IMG/VR virus record: IMGVR_UViG_3300020375_000072
DNA: 64,000 nt
Reading direction: 5' to 3' (one strand)
Origin: an uncultured virus (IMG/VR IMGVR_UViG_3300020375_000072)
Lineage: Duplodnaviria; Heunggongvirae; Uroviricota; Caudoviricetes
Part shown: positions 37,108 to 60,288 of the stretch, one piece after another
Layout of the letters: each line of letters begins with the position of its first letter
Position numbering within the stretch: the stretch's first letter is position 1
Notes under the pieces: model-generated
The model's input: only the letters and a program-made list of their open reading frames with translations
Database searches by the model: none
Told to the model about the DNA's origin: nothing
Made by a program: the position numbers and the translations under genes

Positions 37108-37917
37108 ATGAATTATTTTGGACCACATCATTCATCAGGGCAAAATCAATTAAGATTTGCTGCACCTATCGCTAATACTGATCACGGTATTACAGTAGGA
37201 CATTGTGATCATGATGGTACGGGAACTGGTCATATTATGACAGCAAATACGACTGGAGTATTTTTAGCAAATGCTCATATTATAGGAGATTTGACGGTAA
37301 CGGGAACAACAGTGTCTGGTGGAACTTCAGAAGAAACTGTTCTTGTAATTGAAGCTGCTTCAGCTCCAACCCCGACTACAAATTCATTATATAATTTATC
37401 ACCAGGGCCTCCTAGTGGTGGATTACACTTTCACGGAGTTAAATTATTAACTGGAACACTTACTGATAATAGAATTCCTGTTGTAGATGGTAATGGACTT
37501 TTGGAAGATACTTCAAATTGGACTTACACTGCGGGTTCTCCTAATGAAGTGTATCTTAATGGAGATATGAGTGTAACGGGTGATGTTATTACAGAATCTA
37601 ATTCTTCTGATGGTAGATTAAAAGATGTTCATTGCACTATTGATAATGGATTAGAGAGATTAAAACATATAAATCCAGTAGAATTCAAATGGAATAAAAA
37701 AGCACAAGATGAATTTGGGGCGGATGATGAAATGCATACCGGTTTAATAGCACAAGAAGTGGAAAAGGTTTTACCAGATATTGTAAAAAAGTCTTCTTGG
37801 AGCCGTGATTATAAGGCGATTAAATATGAGAGAATGGTTCCATTATTATTATCTGCTATTAAACAATTACAGAAAAAGGTTGATTCTTTAGAGGCTCAAT
37901 TAATGATTGGAAAATAA
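37108..37917 (+). CDS. tail-fibre protein with peptidase S74 intramolecular chaperone
   Basis: SDGRLKD, FKWN, GLIAQEVEKVLP, YERMVPLLLSAIKQL and a terminal coiled coil. Confidence 0.9.
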   Translation: MNYFGPHHSSGQNQLRFAAPIANTDHGITVGHCDHDGTGTGHIMTANTTGVFLANAHIIGDLTVTGTTVSGGTSEETVLVIEAASAPTPTTNSLYNLSPGPPSGGLHFHGVKLLTGTLTDNRIPVVDGNGLLEDTSNWTYTAGSPNEVYLNGDMSVTGDVITESNSSDGRLKDVHCTIDNGLERLKHINPVEFKWNKKAQDEFGADDEMHTGLIAQEVEKVLPDIVKKSSWSRDYKAIKYERMVPLLLSAIKQLQKKVDSLEAQLMIGK

Positions 37918-37920
37918 TAT

Positions 37921-39174
37921 ATGAAACAACAATTAAAATTTAGTCCAACATTAAGTGATATGGCTTTTCCTATGATTGAAGTGGACGCCGATACTGTAAC
38001 CGTAAAAATGTTTATAGACGTTTTTAAAGGTGAGGATGGACCTATAGATCCTGCGGCAACTCCACCGATTAATCATTTTTATGCTAATAATTGTTCTGAA
38101 CATTATGTTATGCAAAGACATAATGTAAGAATAAATGAGGGGGATACTTATGATATTTTTAATGGAGATATTTGGTCAGATGATTTAAATAAACAAGGGA
38201 GATGGTTTAAATTTGTTGGTGGAGCACAAATTAAAAGAAATGCGGACAAGACAGGAATAAAACTTCTTACTACAGTTTTTGATAGAAATGAGGAAAGTCC
38301 GGATGAAGGATTTGAAATAGGACCCAATATGCCTGAATGGCAAGATTGTTCAATGTGGGCATTTGATTATAGTTTCGCTGGTCAAAATTTTTATACTCCA
38401 TACAATTTATTTTTGGAAACAAAAGCAAGTCATTCTACAGGTTATAGATATGAAGCCAGAAGAAATTTTGTTTATAAACCAGTAATAACTGTAATGCAAG
38501 AAGGAAAAACATATTATTCTACGTCTGAACATCAAAAAAGAATGGTGGGAATGTTTTTATTTGATAAAGATGATGCCTTTACTAATGCGTCATTCTATGT
38601 TAAAACATGGGGAAAACCATTATATCAAAAAACAGAAACAGGATGGACAGCCTCTGAACTAGAACAAGCAGAAGATGCATTTAATACATTTTATAAACCA
38701 GAAGGAACCTTTTCTAAGTATTATAGACAAGACCATACATTATTGAATTATCAAACCTTACCGACACCTACTATATATGTGAATATTCCAGAAACAATTA
38801 ATAGAGATGATATTGTTAAAGGTAATGTTTCATTATTAGACTTGGATGATGTGTTACTAATGGAGGATGGAGATATTTTAATTACAGAGGGAATGGATGA
38901 ATCTTCAATAAGTTTACTTAGACAGGTGGATGAGTCACTTCAAGTTGATGGTGAACCAGAATCAAGCAAAATATTAAACAAAGATGTTTCAGTATATGTA
39001 AAATCCAATATGGGATATTTGGGAAAAAATAAAATTGAGTTAATTAACGGTAAGGGATCATTTTATTTCAGGGCATTAGATTTAGAAGTGGATGATGAAG
39101 TTAAATTAAAGATAGGATTTAAAACTTTTAGTAATGTAACTGAACAAAATATAAAAGTTATTTTGGGAGCATAA
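37921..39174 (+). CDS. hypothetical protein with beta-rich (Ig-like?) C-terminus
   Basis: 417-aa ORF in the structural operon; LLMEDGDILITE motif; C-terminal GYLGKNKIELINGKGSFYFRALDL. Confidence 0.7.
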   Translation: MKQQLKFSPTLSDMAFPMIEVDADTVTVKMFIDVFKGEDGPIDPAATPPINHFYANNCSEHYVMQRHNVRINEGDTYDIFNGDIWSDDLNKQGRWFKFVGGAQIKRNADKTGIKLLTTVFDRNEESPDEGFEIGPNMPEWQDCSMWAFDYSFAGQNFYTPYNLFLETKASHSTGYRYEARRNFVYKPVITVMQEGKTYYSTSEHQKRMVGMFLFDKDDAFTNASFYVKTWGKPLYQKTETGWTASELEQAEDAFNTFYKPEGTFSKYYRQDHTLLNYQTLPTPTIYVNIPETINRDDIVKGNVSLLDLDDVLLMEDGDILITEGMDESSISLLRQVDESLQVDGEPESSKILNKDVSVYVKSNMGYLGKNKIELINGKGSFYFRALDLEVDDEVKLKIGFKTFSNVTEQNIKVILGA

Positions 39175-39915
39175 ATGGCATTTTTTATAGGAGATAATTG
39201 TTGGGTTGATCACCCACTAACTACTTTAATGATTAATTTTAAAGAAGTGATTCATGATAATTTTGAAACGTTTTCTGATGAGACCTGGAAATGTAAACCA
39301 AAAGTTATTGCACATTTAAAAGTATATGGAAATCCAGTAGGAGGATTTTTAGGGGAACAACAGATGTGTGGCCGAGGTAGCGGTTATAATTTCAATTATC
39401 AATGTACTAAATATGTTGATGCAACAAACAAAGCTGGATTTTATTGGGATGGTCTTTCTAGTGGGTTTGAATGGTGTTGGAGTGAGCAACGTGATTGTGC
39501 TGCGGCGTGTTCAGGATGTATATGTCATTTTTGGAATTCAATGACCAGTACTGGTAATAACGGGGCATTCTTCTTTGAACCAATCTGTAATCATCAAACT
39601 CAAAATGTTGGAGGATCTGGTTCAATACGTGGAGATTATCAAGGTAGTCAATTGTATGATAAGTATAACGGTGCTTGGATGGTGGGTATATGTTTACATT
39701 CTGATTATAGATTAAAAGATAATATTACATTGTTACAAGAAGAAAAAGCTGGAATTCCCAATATCTACTCTTTCAATTATAAATGGGATACAAAAACCAC
39801 TTGGACCGGAGTTATAGCACAAGAATTACTTGATACTGGTTATTCTGATGCTGTAGGTGTAGATTCAGAAGGATTTTATTATGTAAATTATTCCAGATTA
39901 GGAGCAAAACAATAA
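39175..39915 (+). CDS. Cys-rich fibre-like protein with a short S74 chaperone domain
   Basis: 11 Cys before SDYRLKDNI...FNYKW...GVIAQEL...VNYSRL. Confidence 0.8.
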   Translation: MAFFIGDNCWVDHPLTTLMINFKEVIHDNFETFSDETWKCKPKVIAHLKVYGNPVGGFLGEQQMCGRGSGYNFNYQCTKYVDATNKAGFYWDGLSSGFEWCWSEQRDCAAACSGCICHFWNSMTSTGNNGAFFFEPICNHQTQNVGGSGSIRGDYQGSQLYDKYNGAWMVGICLHSDYRLKDNITLLQEEKAGIPNIYSFNYKWDTKTTWTGVIAQELLDTGYSDAVGVDSEGFYYVNYSRLGAKQ

Positions 39916-41214
39916 ATGGCATTTTATGTAGGTAGTAAAAAAGTTATTTCTAAACAAATGTTTATGGATGCATCCGGTAATACGAATAATGACGGTTCGA
40001 ATGTTACCGCCTGTGTATATCCTGGAGAAACATTTGGAGGATGTGGTGGAATAATGGCTACTAATCCTGGTGGTTGTTCCGGTTCAGTAGTCTTAGAACA
40101 TTCAGGTGGATGTGATCTGCCGGCAGGAGGAGGCATTGATAAATATCCATTTTTTTGTGATTTTGTTGGGAAAAAAGGTCCAACGCAAGATCCTGGGTAT
40201 ACTGGTAATCAAAATTGGGGCACGGGTAATCTCGACTGTCAATCACATTGGCACTTTTGCGATCAGTGTATGCCACCCAGGCAGTGTCAGGCTGATGGAA
40301 GTAGATGTTTATCTCATGTTATTTTTGGTTTTGGTCAATCAGAATATAGATCAGGAATGTTGGGAATTAATGGCCATTGGGGAGAAGGTGGAGCAGGATT
40401 AAATGCAACTCATAGTGCTGGAAGTTTAAGAACAAGTATGGTGTACACGGAGGGAGCACATAATGGAACAAATTATTGTTATCCTCATGGTGATGAATTT
40501 ATTTGGGATATGGAACGCTGTTGTGAAAGAGCATTCATAGGTGTAACTGGTTGGAGCGGGAGCACGGTATGTACTCAGCGGACAAATCAAGTTGCACATA
40601 ACTTATTTGAGGGCAACAACACGTTGGGGTATGGGAGAAATTGGCATACTGCTAGTTTAGATGGAACTGTTGGTGATGGTGGATATCTAGAAGTAAATCA
40701 TCAGCCGGGGAACAACGCGGGGGGCTGTGGTATTCGTTTCCACTGCACTTGCTTCTCAGATTGGTTTTGTACTGATGGAACTGGTAAAAATAAATTATGG
40801 GGATGTACAAACTGGGCTGCAGGGCCTGGTAGATTTGATGGAGATGGACAGGTGAGTACGGGGGAATATCCAGCCGGCTGTTGGATTTTTCCTCATTATT
40901 TCACTTGGTCTGGTGAACCAATTTGTAAAAGAGGATTTATGATAGGTATGGGCTGGGAAGCAGATTTTGCAAGTTGTGATCCTGGGTCAGATAGAAGAGG
41001 TAAGGTATTAAATTCGATAATGTTAAGGTGTGAAAATAATATGGGATTCATGGATGGCTGCGCGATAGATTATTGGTCAGGAGAATATTGTTGTTCCGGA
41101 GGATGTAATGGTACGATTAATGGTCACGCTAGACACGCAGGAGGATATGGAGAAGGTTCAGCTTTGTCATTTGTGACAGCGAAACAGGGTATTACTTGTG
41201 TGTGTTTTAGTTAA
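39916..41214 (+). CDS. Cys/Gly-rich protein
   Basis: 432 aa, about 29 Cys, ends ITCVCFS. Confidence 0.8.
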   Translation: MAFYVGSKKVISKQMFMDASGNTNNDGSNVTACVYPGETFGGCGGIMATNPGGCSGSVVLEHSGGCDLPAGGGIDKYPFFCDFVGKKGPTQDPGYTGNQNWGTGNLDCQSHWHFCDQCMPPRQCQADGSRCLSHVIFGFGQSEYRSGMLGINGHWGEGGAGLNATHSAGSLRTSMVYTEGAHNGTNYCYPHGDEFIWDMERCCERAFIGVTGWSGSTVCTQRTNQVAHNLFEGNNTLGYGRNWHTASLDGTVGDGGYLEVNHQPGNNAGGCGIRFHCTCFSDWFCTDGTGKNKLWGCTNWAAGPGRFDGDGQVSTGEYPAGCWIFPHYFTWSGEPICKRGFMIGMGWEADFASCDPGSDRRGKVLNSIMLRCENNMGFMDGCAIDYWSGEYCCSGGCNGTINGHARHAGGYGEGSALSFVTAKQGITCVCFS

Positions 41215-41224
41215 AGGATAAATT

Positions 41225-42019
41225 ATGGCGTTAAAATTTGGATCTAAGTCAGGAAAGCAGGGTGCGGGGTACGGCTCGCCCAACAGAATGCATGGAATGG
41301 AAGTACAATCTGATGGGTCGATAGCAATCTCTGCCAGTATGATTGATCCCATGTCAATTCCTGGACATTATGTTGCATCAAACTGGTTTATTAATTCTGT
41401 ATATATTAATAATACCGCAGGAGATGGTCAAACTAATCAAACGGGAAGTGGATTAAGATTTTATAATGTTAACAAAATGGGTATTTCGACGGGTGAAGGT
41501 GGTGGAAGACAATTAAGATTCGAATATACACAAAATTGTAACTGTAAGTGTAAATGCCAATGTAAGTGTAAATGCAAGTGTAAATGCAAATGTAAGTGTA
41601 AGTGTAAATGCAAGTGTAAATGCAAATGTAAGTGCAAGTGCAAATGTGCGTGTAAATGCAAGTGCAAGTGTAAGTGTAAATGCGCGTGTGCATGTTGGAG
41701 TGATGGAAGACTCAAGGAAAATGTTGAAGGAATGGATAATGGTTTAGAAAAAATAAAACAGATCCAATCCATCATGTTTAAATATAATGAGAAGGGTGTA
41801 GAATTTCAAGATGGAGAAGTTAATGAAAAAGATGCAGATGTTCAAGAATTGGGATTTATGGCTGAGGAAATAGAACAAGTATTTCCTGAAATGGTTGATA
41901 TGGTTGAGGTGGAAGATAAACAATATAGAGCGGTAGCATATGTAAAAATGATACCTGTATTATTGAATGCTATTAAAGAATTGAATAAAAAGGTTGAAGA
42001 TATAGAAAATAAGGAGTAA
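41225..42019 (+). CDS. (Cys-Lys)n tract protein with peptidase S74 chaperone
   Basis: AAGGA RBS; 27 alternating Cys followed by WSDGRLKENV...GFMAEEIEQVFP...YVKMIPVLLNAIKEL. Confidence 0.9.
   Translation: MALKFGSKSGKQGAGYGSPNRMHGMEVQSDGSIAISASMIDPMSIPGHYVASNWFINSVYINNTAGDGQTNQTGSGLRFYNVNKMGISTGEGGGRQLRFEYTQNCNCKCKCQCKCKCKCKCKCKCKCKCKCKCKCKCKCKCACKCKCKCKCKCACACWSDGRLKENVEGMDNGLEKIKQIQSIMFKYNEKGVEFQDGEVNEKDADVQELGFMAEEIEQVFPEMVDMVEVEDKQYRAVAYVKMIPVLLNAIKELNKKVEDIENKE
41537..41695 (+). repeat. 6-nt-period coding repeat (TGY AAR)n encoding (C-x)26-C
   Basis: A Cys codon every 6 nt from 41537 to 41693; x = 21 K, 3 A, 1 N, 1 Q; synonymous codons are mixed. Confidence 0.95.
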
Positions 42020-42022
42020 ATT

Positions 42023-42697
42023 ATGAATGTGATGATGTTAGATAATTATAGTATTAGAAAAGCTAATATTGTAATTTATAATGATTGTTTTTCACTTGAA
42101 CAATGTGACGAAATACAAGAGTTACAAAAAGGAAGAGATGTAATTTTATCAAATGATGATGAAAGTTTTTTATTAAATTATAAACATGGAAAGAGTTTAT
42201 ATTCTTATGAGAAAGTTATTTTAGATGATACATTACATATAAAGCAAGAAGAAGATAATCAACCAAAAAATGAAATTGAAATAAGGGCATTTGAATCAAC
42301 TCTTCCTAATAGTTTAGAAGACCATTTAATGAGTTATATTTTTGATGCAAATGTGAAAGTATTTGGTTATGAAATTTGGGGAATGGAAAAAGATCCAGAA
42401 ATACTTACATTTAAAAAAGATGATTTTTTTGGATATCATGAAAATATGTTATGGTATAGTGAAGAAGCAAATGATAGAAAATTGACGGGATATGTATATT
42501 TGTCAGACCATAATAAATCAGAAGGTGGAGAATTATTATTTGATAAAAGTCAAGATATATCTTCCCCTTTGGGAAATTATAATCTTAGGGGAAATTTAGT
42601 AATCTTCCCGTCTTTTTTATGTTATTCTTTTAATAAAATTAAAAGCGGATTTTTACAAGTTCTAGCTTTTGATATCATTGGTCCAAAATTAAAGTGA
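42023..42697 (+). CDS. 2OG-Fe(II) oxygenase-fold protein, iron ligands degenerate
   Basis: DRKLT, EGGEL, GNLVIFPSF and GPKLK align with 50554-51207; HxD reads HEN and the distal His is Tyr. Confidence 0.75.
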   Translation: MNVMMLDNYSIRKANIVIYNDCFSLEQCDEIQELQKGRDVILSNDDESFLLNYKHGKSLYSYEKVILDDTLHIKQEEDNQPKNEIEIRAFESTLPNSLEDHLMSYIFDANVKVFGYEIWGMEKDPEILTFKKDDFFGYHENMLWYSEEANDRKLTGYVYLSDHNKSEGGELLFDKSQDISSPLGNYNLRGNLVIFPSFLCYSFNKIKSGFLQVLAFDIIGPKLK

Positions 42698-42704
42698 GGT
42701 AATT

Positions 42705-43256
42705 ATGTTATATGATCATATTGTTTTTCCTGGTGCGGTAGAAGAAATTGTAGATGAAATGTCAATGTCAATGGGAGACTTACAATCCAAAGGAAATGCA
42801 TCTTCAGGTGCTGGTAAAAATGTTGAAGTTGATTGGTATGGTGGAGGTTATGTAAGTAATATTGAAGAAAATGTTTATTATTATTTTAAAAGAGCGAATT
42901 CTCTAAATTTTGGATATGATATATCCTATACCGAAGCTGTAAGGTGGGAGAAATATTCAAAAGGTGGAAGTTATTCAGTAAGAAAAGAATTGAACCATTT
43001 TTATCAAAATCATCTTGATAGAAAATTGGTTGCTGTAGTAAACATGAATGATCCCTTTGATCCAAAGGAAAAGGGAGGGAACATAGTTCTTTATGAATCA
43101 ACTAGAAAAAGAACAAGCCTTGATGATATTTTTTATCAGAAAAAAGGGGCGATAGCAGTTTTTAACGTATTCACAGGATATGAAATAGAAGAAGTTAAAT
43201 GTGAAGAAGGATTAACTTACTTATTCTGTTTCTGTGTGGGAGACAAATGGCGATAA
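42705..43256 (+). CDS. 2OG-Fe(II) oxygenase-fold protein, iron ligands absent
   Basis: DRKLV, GGNI, KGAIAVF and GDKWR align with its paralogues; no HxD. Confidence 0.65.
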   Translation: MLYDHIVFPGAVEEIVDEMSMSMGDLQSKGNASSGAGKNVEVDWYGGGYVSNIEENVYYYFKRANSLNFGYDISYTEAVRWEKYSKGGSYSVRKELNHFYQNHLDRKLVAVVNMNDPFDPKEKGGNIVLYESTRKRTSLDDIFYQKKGAIAVFNVFTGYEIEEVKCEEGLTYLFCFCVGDKWR

Positions 43257-45178
43257 ACAATATAGCAATATTAGGAAATACTTTAGAAGCAAAATTAGAA
43301 GCAATAACGATGCATCTTAGTTGTCCTAATGTTACTACTACAATTTATACAAATGGGCAGGAATATGAGAATCATGTAATGGTCCCTATTCAATATCCAA
43401 TGTGTTGTCCTGGAACAAGGTATTTGAATGAATATATCGGAATTAAAACTCAAGATCTATTTGAAAATACCAATACCACTGTGGCGATGGGTCAAAATTG
43501 GCAACACAATGATAATGGTATTGTTTCTAATGTTTATATAACAATGGTAAGTAATGTATTTCCTCTTATTATGACTCATTATCAATGTACAGTAAAAGGA
43601 TTTCATGTTGATGCAGATGAAAATGAACAAATTCGATTATTTTTTGAATGGATGAAATACAAATATCCAAATGAGTATTATTCTATTTTGGATATATGGA
43701 CATGGTTTTCTGCAGAGAGATTTCATAATACACCATTTCAAGAACATTTTTTTAATATGGAAAATGCAGTTATAAATTCAGCTCCTGATTATGGAGATTT
43801 TAATTGGGCTCATGCAATGCCGACATGTTATGATTTGGATGGAATGGTGACATTGTTAGATGCTAGAATTGCGTTTTTCAATATTCCTATTGTTACAGAC
43901 GTTATTGACAGCTTTACTATTGAACAAAAATCTCCGGATTTGGGTGCTGGTATTCGAGAAGAATCTTTTAATTGGAAATCATTAGATACTTATGAAGAAC
44001 AAAATTTTAATGATGATTTATTTGCAAAAGATTGGAAAAATATCACACACTTAACAATTGGTGGAGGTGATATTGATATTGATTTTGTAATTGATACTGG
44101 ATGTAATCATCCACAGATGACAGGTTTTATAGAATCTGATGAAGATTTGACAGAAGTGAATTCAACAATGCCCTGGACACAATACCGAGAATATGAATCT
44201 TCAAGACATAAAATGAGTTCTCATGCAGTTTATCAAGTTGATGGAATTCCAAATGGTGCAAGAGTTCATGAAGTTTATAGAGATAAAACGATACATAAAG
44301 AGTTTCAAATAGAAGATTCAAATTGTGATGCTGTTACTGGAAGTTATGCAGGAGAATTCCTTGCGGGAGCAAAAGATAATATTAAAACAGTTTCTTTAAG
44401 TGGAAGAAATGTACAAGATCGATTTATTATAAATGACAAATATAATTCAAATTATATAAGATTTGATATTAAGAGACAAGGATTAAATCCTGTGATGCAT
44501 GAAGAATTATCAAATGTTTTTAATTATGCATATATGTGTACAGAAAAATTAACAAATTGTATTGCAGATCCTGATAATTCTCCAATGTATTTGTCATCAG
44601 CACAATATCATTATAGAATTAATAGAGATGAATTTAAACAATTTGCTTATTATGTATGGGATAATAATACAATTGGTCCTGGTTGGGAATGGGCAAATTC
44701 TGTACCTTCCAAATATAAAAATTTATTTGATTCATGGAATGGTGATATACCAAAAGTTCCTCATGTAGCGGATTATTTGGGACATTCTTTATCTTCAACT
44801 TTTGTAACTAAATATGGAAATTCTCCTGGTGGAAGTAATTCTCCGAGTCGAGTGGCATGGCCGTATTTGGATTTAGAATATACATTCATTGCTGAAGCAA
44901 GAGGAAAAATAACAAAAGATTTTAGTAATAAATTTATTGGATATGAGGATATATTTGAGGATATTAGATTACTTTCTATTATGTTAAAATCAAAATTTTA
45001 TGAATTTGGCACATTAACTTTTGAGGAGTTTAGAGCTAAACATTTAGTTGGTGAAGATTCATTAACTCCCATCACAGCAAATCATATTTTGTTAGAAGAT
45101 GGAACAGGAAAATTATTAACTCGTCATAAGTATATTCAAATAAAAGAATATACATCATCAGAAGATAGTACTATTTAA
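43247..45178 (+). CDS. highly diverged flavin-halogenase-like protein (FAD motif lost)
   Basis: INNIAILGNTLEA replaces the GGGTAG loop; DFVIDTG; size and layout resemble 46004-47872. Confidence 0.5.
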   Translation: MAINNIAILGNTLEAKLEAITMHLSCPNVTTTIYTNGQEYENHVMVPIQYPMCCPGTRYLNEYIGIKTQDLFENTNTTVAMGQNWQHNDNGIVSNVYITMVSNVFPLIMTHYQCTVKGFHVDADENEQIRLFFEWMKYKYPNEYYSILDIWTWFSAERFHNTPFQEHFFNMENAVINSAPDYGDFNWAHAMPTCYDLDGMVTLLDARIAFFNIPIVTDVIDSFTIEQKSPDLGAGIREESFNWKSLDTYEEQNFNDDLFAKDWKNITHLTIGGGDIDIDFVIDTGCNHPQMTGFIESDEDLTEVNSTMPWTQYREYESSRHKMSSHAVYQVDGIPNGARVHEVYRDKTIHKEFQIEDSNCDAVTGSYAGEFLAGAKDNIKTVSLSGRNVQDRFIINDKYNSNYIRFDIKRQGLNPVMHEELSNVFNYAYMCTEKLTNCIADPDNSPMYLSSAQYHYRINRDEFKQFAYYVWDNNTIGPGWEWANSVPSKYKNLFDSWNGDIPKVPHVADYLGHSLSSTFVTKYGNSPGGSNSPSRVAWPYLDLEYTFIAEARGKITKDFSNKFIGYEDIFEDIRLLSIMLKSKFYEFGTLTFEEFRAKHLVGEDSLTPITANHILLEDGTGKLLTRHKYIQIKEYTSSEDSTI

Positions 45179-50557: not shown

Positions 50558-51207
50558 TTACTTCACCAAATGATATAAATGTAACAGACAACATTTTAGA
50601 GGAACATGGTTATCAGGAAATGTCTGATGCTAGAAAACCATACTTCTTTAAAAGAAATGTTTTTACAGACGAGGAGTGTGACAAACTTTGGACTTATTGG
50701 AATGAAGACGAATGTTTTGTTGAAGATGATGTTACTCCTGATAGTCCTTGGTATAAGTATTTTAGAGAGTTGAGAAGTAGAAAACATATGTTTTTAGAGG
50801 GGAAGGATCCGGAAGAATTGTCGTGGTTTGAAAATAAAATTGATGGTTATGTACAACAGGCAAATAAAGAATGCTTTTTCCTTGATGTTAGTTTTGGATT
50901 GATGTCTAAACAATTAATGTGGTATGGAAAAGGTGATTGGTTTCAACCGCATGATGATACAAATCATTGGGATAACAATCATTATGATAGAAAAATAACA
51001 ATAATAATACAATTATGTGATAGCAATGAATATGATGGAGGAGAAACTTTAATATGTTGTGATGATGAAATTGCTCAACCAAAATATCAAAGAGAAAGAG
51101 GAAGTATTTTCATTTTTCCCACTTTTGCGACCCACTCTGTTAATAAAATTACAAAAGGTGAAAGAAAGGCATTTATATGTTGGTACATTGGCCCAAAATT
51201 GAGGTAA
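50554..51207 (+). CDS. 2OG-Fe(II) oxygenase (prolyl-hydroxylase-like), intact
   Basis: PHDD, RKIT, YDGGE and FPTFATHSVNKITKGERK motifs. Confidence 0.92.
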   Translation: MITSPNDINVTDNILEEHGYQEMSDARKPYFFKRNVFTDEECDKLWTYWNEDECFVEDDVTPDSPWYKYFRELRSRKHMFLEGKDPEELSWFENKIDGYVQQANKECFFLDVSFGLMSKQLMWYGKGDWFQPHDDTNHWDNNHYDRKITIIIQLCDSNEYDGGETLICCDDEIAQPKYQRERGSIFIFPTFATHSVNKITKGERKAFICWYIGPKLR

Positions 51208-52989: not shown

Positions 52990-54211
52990 ATTTAAGCGTT
53001 ATTGTCCTATTCCATTTTTTAGTGTAGAGTTAAATAGTAATGAACATGCAAAATTGTGTTGTAATAGTGGTCATCGTTATACTATGGATGGTGATTTAAA
53101 ACATTTTTGGCATTCTGATAAAATGAAAGATATCAGAAAAAACATGTTAGATGATAAGTACTATGATGATTGTCAATTATGTTATCAAAGGGAAGAATTA
53201 TTTAATGATTCAAAACGCTTAGATGAACTTGTACGACAAGGAAAATATTACAAAACACCTTTAGCTTTTCCAACTTTTCTACAGCTTAATTTATCAAATA
53301 TTTGTAATTTAAAATGTATAATGTGTAGTCCAAAATATTCCACAAAATGGAATGAGGATGTTGATAAATTAAAGGGTATGAGAAAAAATCTTGTGAAAGA
53401 ATCCGCATCTAAATTATCAACTGAGGTGCTGAAAAGAACTATTAAAGATTTTATAGAGACAAGATCATTCGCGGAAAAGACTGTTGAGATTTATGGTGGT
53501 GAACCTTTCTTGTCTAAAGAATTTTGGAAAATTATTTCAGAAATACCATATAAAAAATTAAGAAATGTTATATTTAGATGTAATACTAATGGCACTATTC
53601 TTAATAAACCAATAATGGATGGCCTTAAAAAATTTAAGAAGGCTATGATTAATTTTAGTATTGATGGTATTGGAGATGTATTCGAATTTCAAAGGTTCCC
53701 CGCTAATTGGGAGAAAGTAAAGAAGAACATTCTCTATATGAAAGAGTTTGATAAAAGATTTAGATTTAAATTTAAATGCGATTTATATTTTACTTTAACT
53801 TCTTTTAGTGGTATAGGTTTGAAGGAATTTTTAGATTTTTGTAAAAAACATGATTTTGAATATTATATTAATATAGCAGATAATGAGCCACTAATAGATG
53901 TGAAAGATAGAAAAATAGTCAGAGATTCAAGAGAAGATCTTAATGAATGGGAAGAGCCGGAGTATTTTGGAGCAAAAGGATTTACTCATCCATGTATGTT
54001 ACCTGAAGTAGTAAAAGAACAAATATTGAGTGAAGTGGAATCTATGTTATCTCACAAAGATTATATTAAAATAAAGAATTCATTTAGTGATACAAAGGTA
54101 TTTAACGTAAAAATGTTAAATCAATTTCCAAATTATTGTGAACTATTGAAACAAGTTAGGGGGTTAGATTTTTTAAAAATGTTAGAAGAGAGATATAATT
54201 ATGCCTATTAA
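52982..54211 (+). CDS. radical SAM protein with N-terminal twitch/SPASM-like Cys domain
   Basis: YCPIPF...LCC...CQLC, then NICNLKCIMCSPKYST, GGEPF, NTNGT and FSIDG. Confidence 0.9.
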   Translation: MNKFKRYCPIPFFSVELNSNEHAKLCCNSGHRYTMDGDLKHFWHSDKMKDIRKNMLDDKYYDDCQLCYQREELFNDSKRLDELVRQGKYYKTPLAFPTFLQLNLSNICNLKCIMCSPKYSTKWNEDVDKLKGMRKNLVKESASKLSTEVLKRTIKDFIETRSFAEKTVEIYGGEPFLSKEFWKIISEIPYKKLRNVIFRCNTNGTILNKPIMDGLKKFKKAMINFSIDGIGDVFEFQRFPANWEKVKKNILYMKEFDKRFRFKFKCDLYFTLTSFSGIGLKEFLDFCKKHDFEYYINIADNEPLIDVKDRKIVRDSREDLNEWEEPEYFGAKGFTHPCMLPEVVKEQILSEVESMLSHKDYIKIKNSFSDTKVFNVKMLNQFPNYCELLKQVRGLDFLKMLEERYNYAY

Positions 54212-55055
54212 TGATATTATAATAATGGAAACGCCGACCACATTAAAACTATCAGATATGTTCGATAGATATATAGTAACTGATTCTAAGGATATAACTA
54301 CACATCCAGCAATTAAAGTTGATGGTGTGATGCAGGGAAAATATCGACATATTGATGAACTGAAAGCAGAAAATACTGGTGGGAAAACATTTAAATGGCA
54401 ATTAAATCTTCCAAAATTTAATAATGATTTAAGGTATTGGTTTAAAAAATTGTATAAAGAAGTTGATATTCCACTTGATTCACAAGTACATTGTTCAATG
54501 AAAAAATTACAACCATTGAGTCATCAAGTGCATACTGATAGTGATAATAATTATGGAGAACATCATGAAGTATATACTCGATTTTCAATACCGTTGACAC
54601 CTGGATCACCAACCACTTATTATGATAAATGCATGGATGATGATGATTTTAATGTTAGAGTAGATAAAACTAGTTTTAGGAAAGTTGGAAAAGATAATAA
54701 GTGGCAGGGCTTTGAACAAAAACATTTAAAGGATATGAAAACAGGAAAAGAAGTGCGGCTTGACTTACCAACTACGGAAGTTTTTAGAGAAGAATATATG
54801 AAGAAAATGAATCTAATGAATATTCCTGTACAACAAATGTATGGATTAAATATTCATACAATAGCAGAATGGAATCCTGGGGAAATTCAATTTTTCCCTT
54901 GTAGTAATTTACATAGTAGTACGGATTGTCGTGGTACAAAATTTGAAAAAAATGATGATGGAACATGGTATGAAAAGTATTTCTTGACAGGAATTATATT
55001 TAAACCAAAATCCGGAAGACACCAATTTGCATATGGAAATACCGAAAGCTATTGA
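54201..55055 (+). CDS. putative 2OG-Fe(II)/cupin-fold oxygenase
   Basis: VHTD...SIPL...GLNIH...WNPGEIQFFPCSNLHSS. Confidence 0.6.
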   Translation: MPINDIIIMETPTTLKLSDMFDRYIVTDSKDITTHPAIKVDGVMQGKYRHIDELKAENTGGKTFKWQLNLPKFNNDLRYWFKKLYKEVDIPLDSQVHCSMKKLQPLSHQVHTDSDNNYGEHHEVYTRFSIPLTPGSPTTYYDKCMDDDDFNVRVDKTSFRKVGKDNKWQGFEQKHLKDMKTGKEVRLDLPTTEVFREEYMKKMNLMNIPVQQMYGLNIHTIAEWNPGEIQFFPCSNLHSSTDCRGTKFEKNDDGTWYEKYFLTGIIFKPKSGRHQFAYGNTESY

Positions 55056-56220
55056 TAAATTAAGAATTGTTGGTTCTGGAACTGCCGGTTTGATATTTGC
55101 TACTTATTTTAAAAAAATGGTTCCAGACATGGAGATTGAGATTTATTATGACTCCAAGATAAAACCTCTGGTTGTTGGTGAAAGCATGCAACCATATATG
55201 AGATTCTTTTTTGAAAAAGTTTTTGAAGACGAATCTTGGATGGACAAAACAAACGCAACTTATAAATTTTATATTAAACATGATGGTTGGGCTTCCAAAG
55301 ATAGTTCAATGACATTTCCACTGTGTGATGATAGATTTGATAATATAGAAGAATGTGAAAGAGAAGTATTTTCAGCAACATCTACTAAATTACCATCATG
55401 TTCTTCAAGACATGCCTGGCAAATGCAATCAGTTCTATTGCAACCCATATTAATCGAAAAATGTGAAGAAATGGGAATCAAATTGATTGATAAGCATTTT
55501 GATTTTGATGATACTTCTGAATTTGTTATAGATTGTAGAGGATTTAAAGGATTAGAGGGAGGAAACATTTCTCCATTAATTATTAATGATACAGCAATTG
55601 CTGGACATGTTGATCATTTTGGTGATACTAAAGAAAGATATTATACAAGAACTATCGCAAAAGATAATGGATGGGCTTGGGAAATTCCATTACAAAATAA
55701 AGTAGGAGTTGGTAGAGTTTTTTGTTCTAGATATAATACTGAAGAAGAGATTAAAGAACAGTTATTAAAAACTTATGGATTAAAGAAGACTTTGACAGTT
55801 CCTTTTGTCACGAGATATAATACTGATGCATGTACCTCACAAAGCTTAAAAATTGGAACATCATCAGTATTCATAGAACCATTAGAAGCTACAACATTAT
55901 TATTAGTTGTATATTCTTGTTGGTTATTTAAAGAGATGTTAAAATCATTTCAATTTACAATTGATAAGTATTTTGTTGAACATTATAATAAAAATTATAG
56001 ACGGATGGTTGACCAACATGTTCTTTTTATTGAAAGTTTTTATGGATTATCAAATAGAGTAGATTCTCCTTACTGGCAAGAAATTGATAAACATCGAAAA
56101 GCTTTTAGAAAAAAGATTAATAAAAACTGGCCAGAATATTATGGAAATTATATAAAAAAGAAGGTATATGAAGGATTTGAATTCAAGCCATCTGGTATTG
56201 GAAGATACTTTAATATGTAA
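55027..56220 (+). CDS. flavin-dependent halogenase-family protein (short)
   Basis: IVGSGTAG, VGES, ATYK, IDCRG, GWAWEIPL and FIEPLEAT; start may be 55033. Confidence 0.88.
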   Translation: MHMEIPKAIDKLRIVGSGTAGLIFATYFKKMVPDMEIEIYYDSKIKPLVVGESMQPYMRFFFEKVFEDESWMDKTNATYKFYIKHDGWASKDSSMTFPLCDDRFDNIEECEREVFSATSTKLPSCSSRHAWQMQSVLLQPILIEKCEEMGIKLIDKHFDFDDTSEFVIDCRGFKGLEGGNISPLIINDTAIAGHVDHFGDTKERYYTRTIAKDNGWAWEIPLQNKVGVGRVFCSRYNTEEEIKEQLLKTYGLKKTLTVPFVTRYNTDACTSQSLKIGTSSVFIEPLEATTLLLVVYSCWLFKEMLKSFQFTIDKYFVEHYNKNYRRMVDQHVLFIESFYGLSNRVDSPYWQEIDKHRKAFRKKINKNWPEYYGNYIKKKVYEGFEFKPSGIGRYFNM

Positions 56221-56782
56221 TGGAGTTATAACATGGGAGGGTGGAAGATTTGTGATGCCCTCTGGAAAACATTTGGATATGGGGTGTGGCGACATGCCTT
56301 ATAAAAAAGATTTAATGACTGAAAATATAGTGGGAATTGATAATCAAAAATTCCCAAATGTAGATATTATTGGAAATTTAGAAGATATTAAATTATGGAA
56401 AACATTATCAAATGATGAATTTGACTGTATTACCTCATTTGGAGTATTACATTGGTTGGGGAAAAGGTCAGAAGTTTGGCTGAAAGAAACTTATAGAGTG
56501 TTAAAGCCGGGTGGGAAATTTTATCATTATTTTTGGGATATGAGAAATTTGTATGAACCAGAAATATGTAAACTTTTATCTGGAATGCATCCTGGGAATT
56601 ACCCCTATTGGTGGAAACAATATGCTTCGTCAGCAAAAGAGAAATTTGAAAGAACTGGATTTAAAATAATTCTTTCAGAATCTTGCAGACCTAAAATAAT
56701 TAGACGCGGATTGATAAATAAAATTAAGGGAACACTTAAAGATCCAAGACCATATTTTATTAGAATTGTTGGAGAGAAATGA
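56168..56782 (+). CDS. class I SAM-dependent methyltransferase
   Basis: HLDMGCG, GID and YRVLKPGG motifs; true start uncertain (possibly 56255). Confidence 0.85.
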   Translation: MKDLNSSHLVLEDTLICNGVITWEGGRFVMPSGKHLDMGCGDMPYKKDLMTENIVGIDNQKFPNVDIIGNLEDIKLWKTLSNDEFDCITSFGVLHWLGKRSEVWLKETYRVLKPGGKFYHYFWDMRNLYEPEICKLLSGMHPGNYPYWWKQYASSAKEKFERTGFKIILSESCRPKIIRRGLINKIKGTLKDPRPYFIRIVGEK

Positions 56783-57675
56783 ATTTTAAATATTTTAAAT
56801 TTACAGAAGACCAAAAAGCACATTTAAAAGCATTAACAGAATATTCAAAAATTATTCTCAGAGATGATTCTTTTTTTAAAGAACCATATAAGTCATTTGA
56901 ACATTCAGCACAAAAATTCCAAATTCATCATGAACTTGGTATTATTCCGGATAGTTCTTCTACACTTGTTAGATGTATTCAGATGGATTCTTCAAGAATT
57001 GTGTCTTTCTTTGAACAAATAGTAAGAGGCGGTGAGAATGTGACATTTTTTTATTCATTGGGACCATTAGAAAATGACGTTGAAGAAGATTCTATTGATT
57101 TGGCCCCATTTTATGATTATGTAAATTCTATTCAAGATGTATTAAAAACTTATGGAAGGGAAAATAATATAAATGAGGATGAGGTTACAATCTGTTTTGA
57201 AATTTATTATTTTCCTAAAAATAGATATAAATTTTTACTTGGAAATGAGAGGCAGGGTTCAATATTTAATTTAATGGCTTCAACTAATTCAATAATATAT
57301 TATGAACCACATGAAGAATTTAAATTATTTAATGCGGGAGTATTATCTTTTGGTGATGAAAGATTTTATACCTACAATGATATAATTAAAGATGGAATTG
57401 TTGTTGTTGGGATTTTTGTTGAACAATTAATTTCTGAGGATGAACTGGAAGAGAAGAAGAAAGACAAATCCAAAGCAAGAGACAATAATGTTACATATAG
57501 ACCGCCTTGGGGTAGACCAAAGTATAATGAGGAGATGACAGATGATAAACAAAAGACTCGTGAAACAAAAAAGACTCAATCTAAAAGACCCAACATTGAA
57601 ATAGTGGATAGGGGAAGAGATACACAATGGGGTGTTGATAAATTCTCTATCAGACCAACAAAAAATAAAAAATGA
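56779..57675 (+). CDS. hypothetical protein
   Basis: 298-aa ORF with ATGA overlaps at both ends. Confidence 0.65.
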   Translation: MNFKYFKFTEDQKAHLKALTEYSKIILRDDSFFKEPYKSFEHSAQKFQIHHELGIIPDSSSTLVRCIQMDSSRIVSFFEQIVRGGENVTFFYSLGPLENDVEEDSIDLAPFYDYVNSIQDVLKTYGRENNINEDEVTICFEIYYFPKNRYKFLLGNERQGSIFNLMASTNSIIYYEPHEEFKLFNAGVLSFGDERFYTYNDIIKDGIVVVGIFVEQLISEDELEEKKKDKSKARDNNVTYRPPWGRPKYNEEMTDDKQKTRETKKTQSKRPNIEIVDRGRDTQWGVDKFSIRPTKNKK

Positions 57676-58496
57676 CACCAAGCGCAGAAGAACTTGTATA
57701 TCATAAAACGGATGATTTTTTCTCACATTGGAAACCGCCAGAACTCTATGAATCTTTTTTTGATAAGTATGAAATTTCAAAGATTTGGAATGATTATACT
57801 GATAATGGATTTCGCTCTCAAGGAAAGGATTATGCTGGAAGAACTCTAAATTGGAATAGTTCTTTTTATAAAAAGTATAAGCCTTTTTTGTGGAAAGGAT
57901 TAAAGAAATTGTATCCCAAATTAAAGTATGAACAATTGTGGGGAGAACTCTTATATAATGATGCACCAACAGCACCACATATCGATGGGCAAATGCGTCA
58001 TGATAATTATCCTGTTAGACAATTTCTTGTACCTATAAATGTTAACTGTGAGAATACTTTTTATAAATGGGCAGGAACTGTAATATTTAAACAGCATGTG
58101 GTTACAGATTGGGAGAATGGGGCTGAATGGCATATAATTGGAAGTAGAGAAAAGTTTAGTCTTTTACCAAAATTCGTGGATAAATGGAAGTTTAAAAAAT
58201 TTTTTGGGAAGGGTTATTCAAACATGGAATGGAGAGATTGTTATGGAGTACCATTAAAACACCATAATGATCTCACATGTTCTCCAAAAGATTTTGGTGA
58301 TGATTTCTGTCATATTGTTATCAGAGATAAAAATTGGTTGAAAGGATTGGATATTGATCAATATTTCAATTACCATCCAGGTGACCTACTTTCATTTAGT
58401 CCCTATTGTGTACATAGTGGTGCAAATTACTGGAAAGATGGTGTAAAGGGGAAAACGTTTTTTAGAATGAGAATATATGAAAATTATAGAATTTAA
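57672..58496 (+). CDS. putative 2OG-Fe(II)/cupin-fold oxygenase
   Basis: PHID...LVPI...FKQH...GLDID...PGDLLSFSPYCVHS. Confidence 0.6.
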   Translation: MTPSAEELVYHKTDDFFSHWKPPELYESFFDKYEISKIWNDYTDNGFRSQGKDYAGRTLNWNSSFYKKYKPFLWKGLKKLYPKLKYEQLWGELLYNDAPTAPHIDGQMRHDNYPVRQFLVPINVNCENTFYKWAGTVIFKQHVVTDWENGAEWHIIGSREKFSLLPKFVDKWKFKKFFGKGYSNMEWRDCYGVPLKHHNDLTCSPKDFGDDFCHIVIRDKNWLKGLDIDQYFNYHPGDLLSFSPYCVHSGANYWKDGVKGKTFFRMRIYENYRI

Positions 58497-59064
58497 TAAA
58501 ACTGATGAAATAAGAAAAACATTTGATGATGTCTTTGATCATATCAAATTTGAAGAAAAGGATTTAATAAGAGAACATTATAATCAATTCTCAAATAAAT
58601 TTCATTATTTAAAAATATATTCTAATATTCATAAAATGCGAGTAGAGAATGTGATATCTGATAATAAATTAATAGAATTATTACATAAACACCATCTTTC
58701 ATTAAATGTTATCATCAAAGAACTATTGAGATGGGAATATAAATATAGATTTGGAAGTAAACTGTTTCATATATTTAAAAAATATGAACTGGATTCCCAT
58801 ATAATCAATTATACTCCACCAAAGAAGAAAACAAGTCGAGGGGGGATGAATGAACATACTGACAATACAGTATTTACTATTAATTGTTGTGATGGGGGAG
58901 GGTTGATATTAAATGGAAGACCTTTTGAAAATTATAAAGATAGAGTTGTTCTATTCTCTGGTGATGTTGTCCACCGCGTAGAAGGGCCCACCAAACAAAG
59001 AAGATCTATTACGACTTTTGTGAACAAACGCAGTTTAAAAAAACTATTCAAATATGTCTTATAA
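58477..59064 (+). CDS. 2OG-Fe(II) oxygenase
   Basis: EHTD...FSGD.VHRV...RRSITTF. Confidence 0.75.
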   Translation: MKIIEFNKTDEIRKTFDDVFDHIKFEEKDLIREHYNQFSNKFHYLKIYSNIHKMRVENVISDNKLIELLHKHHLSLNVIIKELLRWEYKYRFGSKLFHIFKKYELDSHIINYTPPKKKTSRGGMNEHTDNTVFTINCCDGGGLILNGRPFENYKDRVVLFSGDVVHRVEGPTKQRRSITTFVNKRSLKKLFKYVL

Positions 59065-59332
59065 CTTTAAAGAAACCTCAAAAACTCTCATGTTTGATGT
59101 ACCGGCAAAATGGAAGAATTTCTTTTATGAAGAGTGCGTCACCTATCTTAAAATCAATGATGGTGAAAGAACTGAAGAAGATCTAAAATATATAAAGGAA
59201 AGGTGGGGAATGTATGACCTTAAATTTGAAAAGGGAGATTTTGAAAATCCCATAGAATGGAAATTTGTGGGAGATCCTGAAAGAACGTTTACTATATCCA
59301 GAGACAAACATATACATTATCCAGCAGTATGA
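59054..59332 (+). CDS. hypothetical protein
   Basis: 92-aa ORF overlapping both neighbours. Confidence 0.6.
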   Translation: MSYNFKETSKTLMFDVPAKWKNFFYEECVTYLKINDGERTEEDLKYIKERWGMYDLKFEKGDFENPIEWKFVGDPERTFTISRDKHIHYPAV

Positions 59333-60288
59333 CTATACCAATAATTGACTTCTATGACCCAGACGTTGAAGAAAAAATGTATGACGCATTTACCACAACT
59401 GGTGTAGCTATTTTTACAGGAAACCTGGTGGGTTGGAAACCTGATTTTGATGCTTTGCATGAAAAGATACAAGAATTTTTTGCTCTTCCTATGAAAACTA
59501 AGAAGAAATATTCCCAAATATTAAACTTTAAAAATATTGGATATATTTGGCCAGAACAAGAAAAATTAGTTATAGATAATCCTGGGGATATGAAAGAAAC
59601 CTTTAATTTCGTTGATATAAGTAAGATGCCAGAACAGTATTGGCCGAAAGAGGTGGAAGGATTTAAAGAATATGCTGATAAAATTTATAGAATCAGTACA
59701 CTCATTGTCTATGAAATACTCTATAGATTTGAAAGTATTCTAAAAATTCCTAAAGGACACTTTGTTGAAAAGCATTTAAATGCAATAAATGGTATGAGGT
59801 TTATTCATTACCCTGGGTGGGACATTCCCATAAAGGAAAATCAATTAAGATGTGGAGAGCATTCTGATTTCGATACAATGACACTATTATATAATGATGA
59901 CTGTGCGGGATTACAAATTTATTATAAAGATGAATGGGTTGATGTTCCTGTAGTAGAAAATTCTATTACTGTTATGGTAGCAGATATGTTTCAAAGGTGG
60001 ACAAATGATTTATTAAAATCTATTCCACATAGAGTAGTCAATAAATCAATGAATAGATCAAGATATACAATAGCACATTTTATAGGCCCAGCAAGAAACA
60101 CAATGATTGAAAATTTGACAGATGAGCCAGCTAAATATGACCCCATAAGTTCAGCAGATTATTTAGAATGGAGATATAAAAAACAGTTTTTAGATCCAGA
60201 ACAGGGAGGACTCGATAAAGAGACGTCAAATCCTTATCATGATTGGGAAAGAGTACCAGAACACGATAGCCCTCATTATTGGAGATAA
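59329..60288 (+). CDS. isopenicillin-N-synthase-like 2OG-Fe(II) dioxygenase
   Basis: IPIIDF, FFALP, DMKETF, HYP, CGEHSDF, GLQI, RWTND, PHRV and RYTIAHF motifs. Confidence 0.92.
   Translation: MTIPIIDFYDPDVEEKMYDAFTTTGVAIFTGNLVGWKPDFDALHEKIQEFFALPMKTKKKYSQILNFKNIGYIWPEQEKLVIDNPGDMKETFNFVDISKMPEQYWPKEVEGFKEYADKIYRISTLIVYEILYRFESILKIPKGHFVEKHLNAINGMRFIHYPGWDIPIKENQLRCGEHSDFDTMTLLYNDDCAGLQIYYKDEWVDVPVVENSITVMVADMFQRWTNDLLKSIPHRVVNKSMNRSRYTIAHFIGPARNTMIENLTDEPAKYDPISSADYLEWRYKKQFLDPEQGGLDKETSNPYHDWERVPEHDSPHYWR

Follow-up and report, generated by a model that had tools for sequence, protein, structure and literature searches.

A radical SAM/SPASM cassette in the late operon of a marine T4-like phage with a probable role in the maturation of cysteine-rich fibre-type proteins

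Cross-linking by radical S-adenosylmethionine (SAM) enzymes that carry a SPASM domain is known from peptide antibiotics and from two cellular proteins, QhpC and CrpA. The SPASM enzyme CrpC is reported to introduce ranthionine links into CrpA, a Cys-repeat protein of Methanococcus voltae, and QhpD to modify QhpC (PMC13692751). PapB is reported to link Cys to a C-terminal residue (PMC12373016), and a phage radical SAM maturase is termed an 'antibiotic synthesis gene' in a study on cyanophages (PMC12801897). Full-text literature searches turned up no account of a phage fibre or virus particle modified by a radical SAM enzyme. Here we analyse a 64,000-nucleotide (nt) stretch of DNA from an uncultured virus (IMG/VR record IMGVR_UViG_3300020375_000072), hereafter referred to as the window, in which a run of fibre-type genes leads into an 18-kb array of enzyme genes built around a radical SAM/SPASM enzyme. 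All positions are those of the window; its G+C content is ∼30% and the + strand is the coding strand of all its genes.

Judging from sequence comparisons, the phage probably modifies parts of its own fibres by chemical means. More specifically, we consider it fairly likely that a late-operon cassette of a marine T4-like phage matures the phage's own small fibre-type proteins post-translationally. The reading is built on gene content, sequence motifs, co-occurrence and synteny, which are described below. The original prediction for this locus had likened it to a cluster for peptides that are made on ribosomes and modified after translation (RiPPs), with virion proteins as the precursors.

The core of the cassette is a radical SAM enzyme with a full SPASM domain, encoded at 48062–49408 (PF04055, 50.6 bits). 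Its CxxxCxxC motif (C90/C94/C97) is invariant in 17 sequences, and the seven Cys of the SPASM domain (C335, G349-x4-C354, C388-x2-C391-x5-C397-x3-C401 and C413) are invariant in the 17 homologues, which bears out the originally claimed presence of a SPASM enzyme in the array. The canonical seven-Cys SPASM motif reads C-x(9-15)-G-x4-C ... C-x2-C-x5-C-x3-C ... C, and the first spacing in the window enzyme, C-x18-C, lies beyond that range. The best full-length matches among NCBIfam models are Cys-modifying maturases, namely PapB (E 1e-19), DynA, the SCIFF maturase and anSME (E 2.7e-12); full-length matches in the PDB are 8vpo (1e-19), anSME (4k36, 1.5e-12) and CteB (5wgg). The family is large: at E ≤ 1e-20 it comprises 3053 proteins, and viral contigs contribute at least 605 stretches.

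The foremost candidate substrate is encoded at 41225–42019. This 264-aa protein, with 27 Cys (10.2%), consists of a folded N-terminal part, a ladder of alternating Cys and other residues (C-x), Trp158 and an S74 domain (PF13884, 50.6 bits). Residues 105–157 form an uninterrupted C-x ladder, mainly of Cys-Lys, which is followed by W158 and then by SDGRLKEN, where the S74 match starts; ladder and Trp158 (residues 105–158) together occupy positions 41537–41698. The Cys positions of the ladder are invariant among four homologues sharing 41–55% identity and the ladder is written in mixed synonymous codons (TGT and TGC, AAA and AAG), so that it represents a selected protein feature and not a product of slippage. 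In contigs from one RNA-library run (X1) the Cys-Lys ladder is shorter by 36 nt (12 residues; window 41560–41597, the joint being ambiguous by 38 nt owing to the repeat), which suggests that ladder length varies naturally.

The ladder gene closes a run of fibre-type genes (37108–42019) in which, as had been described originally, three proteins carry S74 domains and three are Cys-rich. The run opens with a 269-aa fibre-type protein (37108–37917) that ends in an S74 intramolecular chaperone and matches 34 PHROG tail-fibre families. It is followed by a 417-aa beta-rich protein with a C-terminal immunoglobulin (Ig)-like domain (37921–39174), by a 246-aa protein with 11 Cys (4.5%) and a weak S74 domain (39175–39915), and by a 432-aa protein with 29 Cys (6.7%) that ends in ...ITCVCFS (39916–41214) and for which no family was found in Pfam, PHROG or NCBIfam. 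The three Cys-rich proteins of the window start with MAFFIG (39175–39915), MAFYVG (39916–41214) and MALKFG, and small Cys-rich open reading frames (ORFs) at the equivalent place in relatives with MAFKIN, MAFFIG and MAFYIN. PF13884 exceeds its gathering score of 22 at the C-terminus of 37108–37917 (48.7 bits), 39175–39915 (24.3 bits) and 41225–42019 (50.6 bits), and SD(G/Y)RLK, including its Ser, is present in all three, for which autoproteolysis is predicted; S74 chaperones fold trimers. A variant with a 199-nt deletion (window 39697–39897) that strips the weak S74 domain from 39175–39915 occurs in L003, a 99%-identical contig (1313–1840, a 175-aa ORF), and in contigs of three of four RNA-library runs (X1, X2 and X4).

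The co-occurrence of enzyme and ladders was examined in 80 viral loci fetched around SPASM homologues (L004 and L009–L087); five of them fall into the window's clade, and several loci are copies of one another or sit side by side on a contig, so that the counts overstate independence. An ORF with C-x-C-x-C-x-C was present on the same strand as the enzyme in 64 of the 80 loci and on the opposite strand in one (1/80); among loci with at least 3 kb of upstream DNA the same-strand count was 59/67. The median distance between ladder ORF and SPASM enzyme in the viral loci is 955 bp. Bacterial genomes, mostly with prophage-like loci of Rhodobacterales and Burkholderiales, contained a ladder ORF in 44 of 74 loci (31 of the 40 with full flanks) and none on the opposite strand; marine Rhodobacterales whose prophages have the module include Thalassobacter stenotrophicus CECT 5294 and Nereida ignava CECT 5292. 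For the reverse comparison, 80 flanked viral loci were retrieved by a DNA pattern for CNCNCNC, which was counted as in frame when it fell into an ORF of at least 50 aa. The SPASM enzyme was encoded in 32 of the 39 loci with the pattern in frame versus none of the 41 with the pattern out of frame. Among the seven in-frame loci devoid of the enzyme, the downstream DNA extends over no more than ∼2 kb in four, and two belong to giant-virus bins. The association between SPASM enzyme and (Cx)n proteins, which the original prediction had set in advance as its check, thus holds in both directions.

In cultured phages, SPASM homologues are found directly behind tail-fibre genes. The gene order in Achromobacter phage JWF is fibre gp028, which contains NCNCDCNCNCSC followed by a Hint domain, then one gene, then the SPASM enzyme; that in Ralstonia phage RSP15 is fibre ORF048 (ending in ...NCQCGN), ORF047, one gene and the SPASM enzyme. 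Achromobacter phage 2-1 is another cultured carrier. The accessible text of the literature on JWF-like phages (PMC9959647) contains nothing on the module. In many prophage-like viral contigs (e.g. L013, L015, L017, L018 and L020–L022) the SPASM gene is the last one before the contig end (at a distance of ∼100 nt at most), which suggests that it closes the late operon beside an attachment site or prophage border.

Clustering of the neighbouring genes in the 80 loci revealed a fibre family, c1, in 58 loci, the hidden Markov model (HMM) of which matches 37108, 41225 and 39175. A second family of ∼300-aa proteins, c2, was present in 51 loci, and its HMM matches 37921–39174 (E 2e-22), a protein that also matches ORF047 of RSP15 (E 1e-36); the earlier expectation that the 37921 family travels with the SPASM enzyme is thereby supported. 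The third, c3 (∼236 aa), resembles 2OG-FeII_Oxy_5 and TIGR02466 and was found in 50 loci; the window carries other oxygenase families. The AlphaFold2 model of 37921–39174 (pLDDT 69) matches only Ig-like domains with low TM-scores in the PDB and only uncharacterised phage proteins in BFVD, and a function could not be read from these fold matches. A predicted complex of 37921–39174 with residues 1–158 of 41225–42019 scored 0.00, a result informative in neither direction.

Most ladder proteins are 60–110 aa long and end in the ladder (e.g. ...NCNCNCRC), and others are long fibres with a terminal ladder. In 56 of 78 ladder ORFs no more than 5 residues separate the ladder from the C-terminus; in the other 22 it is mostly followed by ∼105–170 residues that correspond to S74, Hint or one unknown domain. 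Self-cleavage of the trailing domain would therefore expose all such ladders at the C-terminus. A MAYKVG-type start was found in 33 of 64 distinct ladder proteins versus 49 of 2466 other ORFs, the rest of the ladder proteins displaying at least three other kinds of N-terminus. A further class of ladder proteins, of ∼290 aa, is encoded downstream of the enzyme (L059, 2138–3007; L063, 1696–2574; L071, 9528–10427; L073, 9263–10144; L083, 9483–10466). These have a MTLPSSGxIS-type start, several CN ladders, a conserved ∼165-aa domain (SKIICAKL...) and a hydrophobic stretch at the end, and gave no match in Pfam or NCBIfam.

From these data we infer the substrates, the chemistry, a location in the virion and a participation of accessory enzymes, as follows. 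The targets would be proteins with a MAxx(I/V)G-type N-terminus and Cys-x ladders, i.e. 41225–42019 and probably also 39916–41214 and 39175–39915. The ladder of 41225–42019 ends at Trp158 directly before the S74 self-cleavage site, and the mature protein would therefore end in the ladder. The SPASM enzyme would most likely join ladder Cys to neighbouring residues by thioether bonds, as do QhpD, CrpC, PapB and CteB. Such stapling, proposed by analogy, is favoured because of the full-length matches to Cys-modifying maturases and because of the CrpC/CrpA and QhpD/QhpC precedents; formylglycine formation or metal binding are the alternatives. A PapB-type linkage between Cys and a C-terminal residue would, again by analogy, fit the strict C-terminal placement of the ladders. 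The 37921 family may act as a non-enzymatic constant partner, either a docking protein or a chaperone.

The enzyme array begins directly behind the ladder gene with two paralogous P4H-type 2-oxoglutarate (2OG)/Fe(II) oxygenases (42023 and 42705; 42023–43256), which score below the PF13640 cut-off and align at 100% in hhalign, applied here to 81 chosen pairs, to two further P4H-type oxygenases, 49901 and 50554 (49901–51207; phrog_61 for the former; PF13640, 50.6 bits). Two flavoenzymes of the Trp-halogenase family are encoded at 46004–47872 (PF04820, 260 bits; phrog_2928) and 55027–56220 (PF04820, 166 bits), well above the cut-off of 21. WxWxIP, a motif of flavin-dependent halogenases, is kept in both (WMWQIP and WAWEIP, respectively); they may act as halogenases or as monooxygenases. 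A 643-aa protein at 43247–45178 remotely resembles the N-terminal half of the halogenase family (hhalign 96.2%, E 2e-9, to 46004), in agreement with the two flavin halogenases and the degenerate one recognised originally. The second radical SAM enzyme of the array, a twitch-domain protein, is encoded at 52982–54211 (NCBIfam NF033640, 228.2 bits, cut-off 170). Matches of its HMM at 33 distant loci proved to be the SPASM enzyme itself, detected through the shared core, and were discarded as evidence for a second radical SAM enzyme there. The predicted methyltransferase is also present (56168–56782; class I, SAM-dependent, PF08241 and other Pfam matches). At window positions 56180–56212, contig L003 (16405–18258) has ∼50 extra nt flanked by a 33-nt direct repeat, and therefore halogenase 2 and the methyltransferase form one 617-aa ORF in L003 and two overlapping ORFs in the window.

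The glycosyltransferase listed in the original prediction is recognisable by its modelled fold, which is of the GT9 (heptosyltransferase-like) type: a Foldseek search with the AlphaFold2 model of 51177–52160 (pLDDT 72.8) matched 1psw (E 6.6e-10), 3tov (TM 0.62–0.63), WaaC and TibC (4rap). The protein has no Pfam match, sequence comparison did not place it in GT9, and five of its homologues produced only noise in Pfam at E ≤ 5. Three proteins share an invariant HxD...H in alignments, namely the 273-aa product of 52168–52989 and its paralogue (by hhalign) at 57672–58496, and the 284-aa product of 54201–55055; profiles of 52168/57672, 54201 and 51177 retrieved nothing usable from PDB sequences. 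The tail of the array (56779–60288) comprises a 298-aa protein without family assignment (56779), the HxD...H protein at 57672–58496, a weak 2OG protein below the Pfam cut-off (58477–59064), a 92-aa protein, and a protein with DIOX_N and 2OG-FeII_Oxy domains (59329–60288). The about ten Fe/2OG-fold proteins counted originally are thus reduced to between six and nine: 42023, 42705, 58477 (these three below the Pfam cut-off), 50554, 59329 and 49901 (by phrog_61) have support from Pfam or PHROG, with 50554 and 59329 the only ones above the Pfam cut-off, and 52168, 57672 and 54201 are assigned by HxD...H in alignments only, whereas 45179, 49405 and 56779 are unassigned. The remaining small genes encode a 273-aa protein (45179–46000) without family match in Pfam, PHROG or NCBIfam, a 70-aa basic protein (47850–48062) that is kept directly 5' of the SPASM gene in close relatives, and a 169-aa protein without family assignment (49405–49914). 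The last is missing from the otherwise 99%-identical L003 because of a ∼455-nt indel directly 3' of the SPASM gene.

Under the proposed maturation of ladder proteins, the accessory enzymes, that is, the four P4H-type and several HxD...H oxygenases, the two halogenase-family flavoenzymes, the GT9-fold transferase, the twitch radical SAM enzyme and the methyltransferase, would add further marks. Candidates are hydroxyl groups on Lys, a halogenated or oxidised terminal Trp, and attached sugars. A flavin-dependent brominase is reported to act on ribosomal peptides (PMC10858898). The GT9 fold includes the protein heptosyltransferase TibC, and sugar-nucleotide enzymes are encoded in an island upstream of the fibre genes. 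The idea that halogenases, oxygenases and glycosyltransferase share the ladder proteins as substrates is less secure than that of ladder modification by the SPASM enzyme, its basis being synteny in close relatives and a distant mini-array. In relatives with a SPASM enzyme of 64–66% identity, ∼16 genes from the S74 fibre gene to 54201 are kept in near-order, with minor rearrangements that involve halogenase 2, the methyltransferase and the homologue of 52168, and in all four clade relatives examined two P4H-type oxygenases directly follow the ladder gene and two more the SPASM gene. The mini-array belongs to L066, an independent lineage (SPASM enzyme 35% identical), and is flanked on either side by an S74 fibre gene. 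It encodes a 2OG protein, a B12 radical SAM enzyme, a ladder protein (...CDCACW), the SPASM enzyme, a further pair of 2OG proteins and a Trp halogenase (319 bits). In the set of loci examined, ladders ending in Trp or containing it were confined to the window's clade and to L066 with its near-identical partial copy L069. The window's clade and L066 also have a halogenase next to the SPASM enzyme; L069 breaks off at the SPASM gene, and what lies behind it cannot be seen. In the most far-reaching form of this proposal, which we find doubtful, the product would be a thin polycationic needle, made from the covalently stapled Cys-Lys ladder of 54 residues. S74 would trimerise this ladder and then set it free, and a ∼20-gene pathway would finish the needle with thioether staples, hydroxylated Lys, glycosylation, and a halogenated or oxidised C-terminal Trp.

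A number of observations weigh against the maturation of fibre-type proteins by this cassette or against its extension to the whole array. The SPASM enzyme scores far below the cut-off of every named NCBIfam maturase model (PapB NF047865, 70.8 bits versus 340; SCIFF TIGR03974, 46.5 versus 425; QhpD TIGR03906, 54 versus 453; TIGR04463, 38.8 versus 525; anSME TIGR03942, 46.5 versus 349) and is therefore placed in a separate clade. Elsewhere in viral contigs, in-frame (CK)4C is accompanied by the enzyme in 1 of 12 cases, several of these being very short contigs or giant-virus bins; the Cys-Lys version of the ladder is therefore specific to the window's clade. The c3 oxygenase was not detected in the window by its HMM, nor did hhalign find a partner at ≥50% probability. 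The RiPP-like layout proposed originally, with S74 as a cleavable follower, agrees with the placement of ladders at the C-terminus or before a self-cleaving S74 or Hint domain, but no common leader was found among the 64 distinct ladder proteins, which have at least four unrelated N-termini, and neither an RRE nor a PqqD family was detected in the window (Pfam, NCBIfam). As regards the array, the synteny of the relatives may come from common descent alone, and accessory families accompany the SPASM enzyme in 3 of 75 loci outside the window's clade: within ±8 kb of these distant loci, a halogenase was found in 1/75, a P4H-type 2OG protein in 2/75, and GT9-like, 52168-like or 54201-like proteins in 0/75. 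Pelagibacter phage HTVC008M has five 2OG genes and PrnA in or beside its structural genes and no annotated ladder or radical SAM enzyme. Sullivan et al. (2010) reported that 14 of 16 cyanomyophages have multiple 2OG-Fe(II) genes and that several have prnA, and suggested 2OG/nitrogen physiology or DNA repair as possible roles (PMC3037559). On the other side of the fibre genes (10.6–25 kb) lies a second island, which encodes sugar-nucleotide enzymes and glycosyltransferases along with a Mom-like protein, ThyX and a third radical SAM enzyme. These facts speak for the possibility that the SPASM enzyme and the 37921 family alone serve the ladders and that the other enzymes form a generic accessory island of marine T4-like phages, which acts on small molecules, nucleic acids or host glycans and is adjacent by descent. 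We regard this as somewhat unlikely in view of the P4H pairs behind both the ladder gene and the SPASM gene in all four clade relatives, of L066, which unites halogenase, 2OG proteins, two radical SAM enzymes and a Trp-ended ladder independently, and of an operon that runs through without internal gap or signal. The co-occurrence in viral and bacterial loci lends partial support to the tailoring of fibre tips originally envisaged as far as the ladders are concerned; a participation of the array as a whole is less certain.

Two other explanations concern the ladder proteins themselves. These could be RiPP-like products, for instance toxins, signals or metal binders, that lysis sets free, with the MAYKVG-type region serving as leader, instead of being parts of the virion; many ladder ORFs indeed encode only 60–110 aa, in which a conserved N-terminus and a C-terminal Cys core enclose a variable stretch, the enrichment of the MAYKVG-type start is pronounced, and the nearest named families of the enzyme are RiPP maturases. 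Nevertheless, ladders also end true long fibres, such as JWF gp028 (annotated as T4 gp36-like), proteins of 615 and 2084 aa, and S74 or Hint fusions; ladder genes sit within tail-fibre blocks; the c1 fibre HMM matches 37108, 41225 and 39175; and a protease, exporter or immunity gene was not seen in the window (Pfam, PHROG, PADLOC). Free products of this kind thus appear quite improbable. Very little credence is given to the ladder as a metal-binding or disulfide zipper of a trimeric fibre, with the radical SAM enzyme performing non-thioether chemistry such as anSME-like conversion of Cys to formylglycine or epimerisation. The alternating C-x pattern would place all thiols on one face of a strand, S74 domains would supply the trimer, the needle of T4 gp37 offers a parallel in its His-x-His iron sites, and anSME aligns with the enzyme over its full length; however, PapB, 8vpo and CteB-type enzymes score equally well or better, many ladders have only 4–5 Cys and belong to proteins without sign of a trimerising domain, and, irrespective of the chemistry, the close genomic association of enzyme and ladder speaks for an action of the former on the latter. 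A role of the locus in defence was dropped, as PADLOC returned only generic radical-SAM-core (viperin) and generic 2OG matches. DNA hypermodification was considered with regard to the upstream Mom-like protein, ThyX and the third radical SAM enzyme; radical SAM enzymes are reported to act in thymidine hypermodification (PMC8989533). As a role of the array it fails to explain the coupling to ladders, and it was kept only as part of the accessory-island explanation.

The block has the boundaries of a putative late transcription unit. The upstream unit ends in a terminator-like hairpin followed by T8 (∼27560–27590, read directly from the sequence). A T4-type late-promoter-like box, TATAAATA, which we take to be the late-promoter consensus, is located at 27639–27646, 18 nt 5' of the ATG at 27664, and is the sole copy on the + strand within 1503–58738. 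All ORFs from 27664 to 60288 are on the + strand and overlap or are separated by ≤15 nt, the first larger gap being one of 76 nt at 60288–60365; the fibre genes hence run into the 18-kb array without real intergenic space, as was noticed originally. Terminator-like matches within the block are at chance level (11 versus 7.4 ± 2.7 and 9 versus 6.4 ± 2.8 in shuffles) and, since gene gaps are ≤15 nt, fall within ORFs, in agreement with the originally noted absence of a terminator from 27639 to ∼60.3 kb. Sigma-70-like matches within the block are not commoner than in shuffles. The head of the operon (27664–37106) encodes a fibre-assembly-like protein of 112 aa, two giant fibres with repeats (1423 and 1475 aa) and a protein of 124 aa (phrog_1084/3304, phrog_8578). 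Contigs from RNA libraries (four runs, two studies) cover the fibre genes and the array in 24–29 of 30 bins; such contigs say nothing on strand, ends or level, DNA carry-over is possible, and uncovered bins are not interpreted.

With respect to phage affiliation, an upstream conserved DUF6267 protein (910–2142) is closest to those of T4-like marine myoviruses, with the best match in Methylophilales phage Melnitz (48.6%) and cyanomyoviruses next. Megablast searches of the region against cultured phages gave no match at the DNA level, and its near-identical and diverged relatives are uncultured viral contigs only. The upstream enzyme island (10633–25004) encodes, besides the Mom-like protein, ThyX and the third radical SAM enzyme (22370–23413), three methyltransferases, GT1-, GT17- and GT9-like transferases, a HAD phosphatase, a PfkB-like kinase, a nucleotidyltransferase-RpiB fusion and a cupin; it may supply activated sugar to the GT9-fold enzyme or modify DNA. 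Between this island and the operon (25004–27232) lie a 660-aa ORF that by eye resembles a class II (B12-type) ribonucleotide reductase and a gene for a glutaredoxin-like 77-aa CxxC protein. Directly 3' of the array, at 60365–63243, an isocitrate lyase (345 bits), a phosphoribosyltransferase and a Bmp/PnrA-type nucleoside-binding lipoprotein are encoded, auxiliary genes that are unusual in phages.

The scale of the array, the Cys-Lys ladder and c2 as a constant partner are new, as are the rule that ladders are C-terminal or precede a self-cleaving domain and the link between a Trp-ended ladder and a halogenase; the window holds the most elaborate version among the loci seen. If fibre tips are stapled or decorated enzymatically, host range would be determined in part by chemistry that cannot be read from the sequence of the fibres, and structural and proteomic studies of fibres would need to look for it. 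The 3053 homologues and at least 605 viral stretches would then represent a large untapped set of enzymes acting on folded proteins. The window could also suggest a role, open to testing, for the many genes for 2OG oxygenases and Trp halogenases in marine T4-like phages, which have been puzzling since at least 2010 (PMC3037559). Should the needle exist, natural-product-style chemistry would build a viral receptor-binding organelle and the 2OG/PrnA sets would gain their first assigned function.

The 2OG and PrnA sets of marine T4-like cyanophages and pelagiphages resemble the window in that the same families occur in multiple copies in or near structural genes, and differ from it in that no tie to a SPASM enzyme or to Cys ladders has been described (PMC3037559). 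The S74 chaperones of endosialidase and tail fibres (PF13884) have counterparts in three window proteins with the typical SD(G/Y)RLK(D/E) start, one of which, unlike the known cases, follows a 54-residue Cys-x ladder; other members of its family have exchanged S74 for Hint or for nothing. Among the ranthipeptide systems, PapB/PapA provides the top whole-enzyme NCBIfam match (residues 82–402) and CteB/CteA (SCIFF) a full-length structural one, 5wgg. Their substrates are peptides of ∼45 aa with a leader and an RRE, whereas the phage ladders have no common leader, a beta-rich partner family of 300–400 aa takes that place in the locus, and the window enzyme reaches 70.8 bits versus 340. CrpC/CrpA comes closer in that a SPASM enzyme acts on a Cys-repeat protein and not on a short peptide; CrpA is an archaeal cellular protein with ten copies of a 17-residue motif, C-x-x-Q/D spacing and a shared 47-residue N-terminus, and the window enzyme scores 38.8 bits versus 525 in TIGR04463. 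Compared with QhpD/QhpC (with QhpG and QhpE), the window enzyme matches the N-terminal part only (54 bits versus 453), the QhpG model gives 23 versus 240, a dehydrogenase is absent from the window, and the target would be a phage fibre-type protein with a C-x repeat ladder. That system nevertheless shares two features with the phage locus: a SPASM enzyme that cross-links Cys to neighbouring residues within a whole protein subunit, and a Trp-modifying flavin monooxygenase alongside, to which the halogenase/QhpG-like flavoenzymes and the Trp-ended ladder of the window would correspond.

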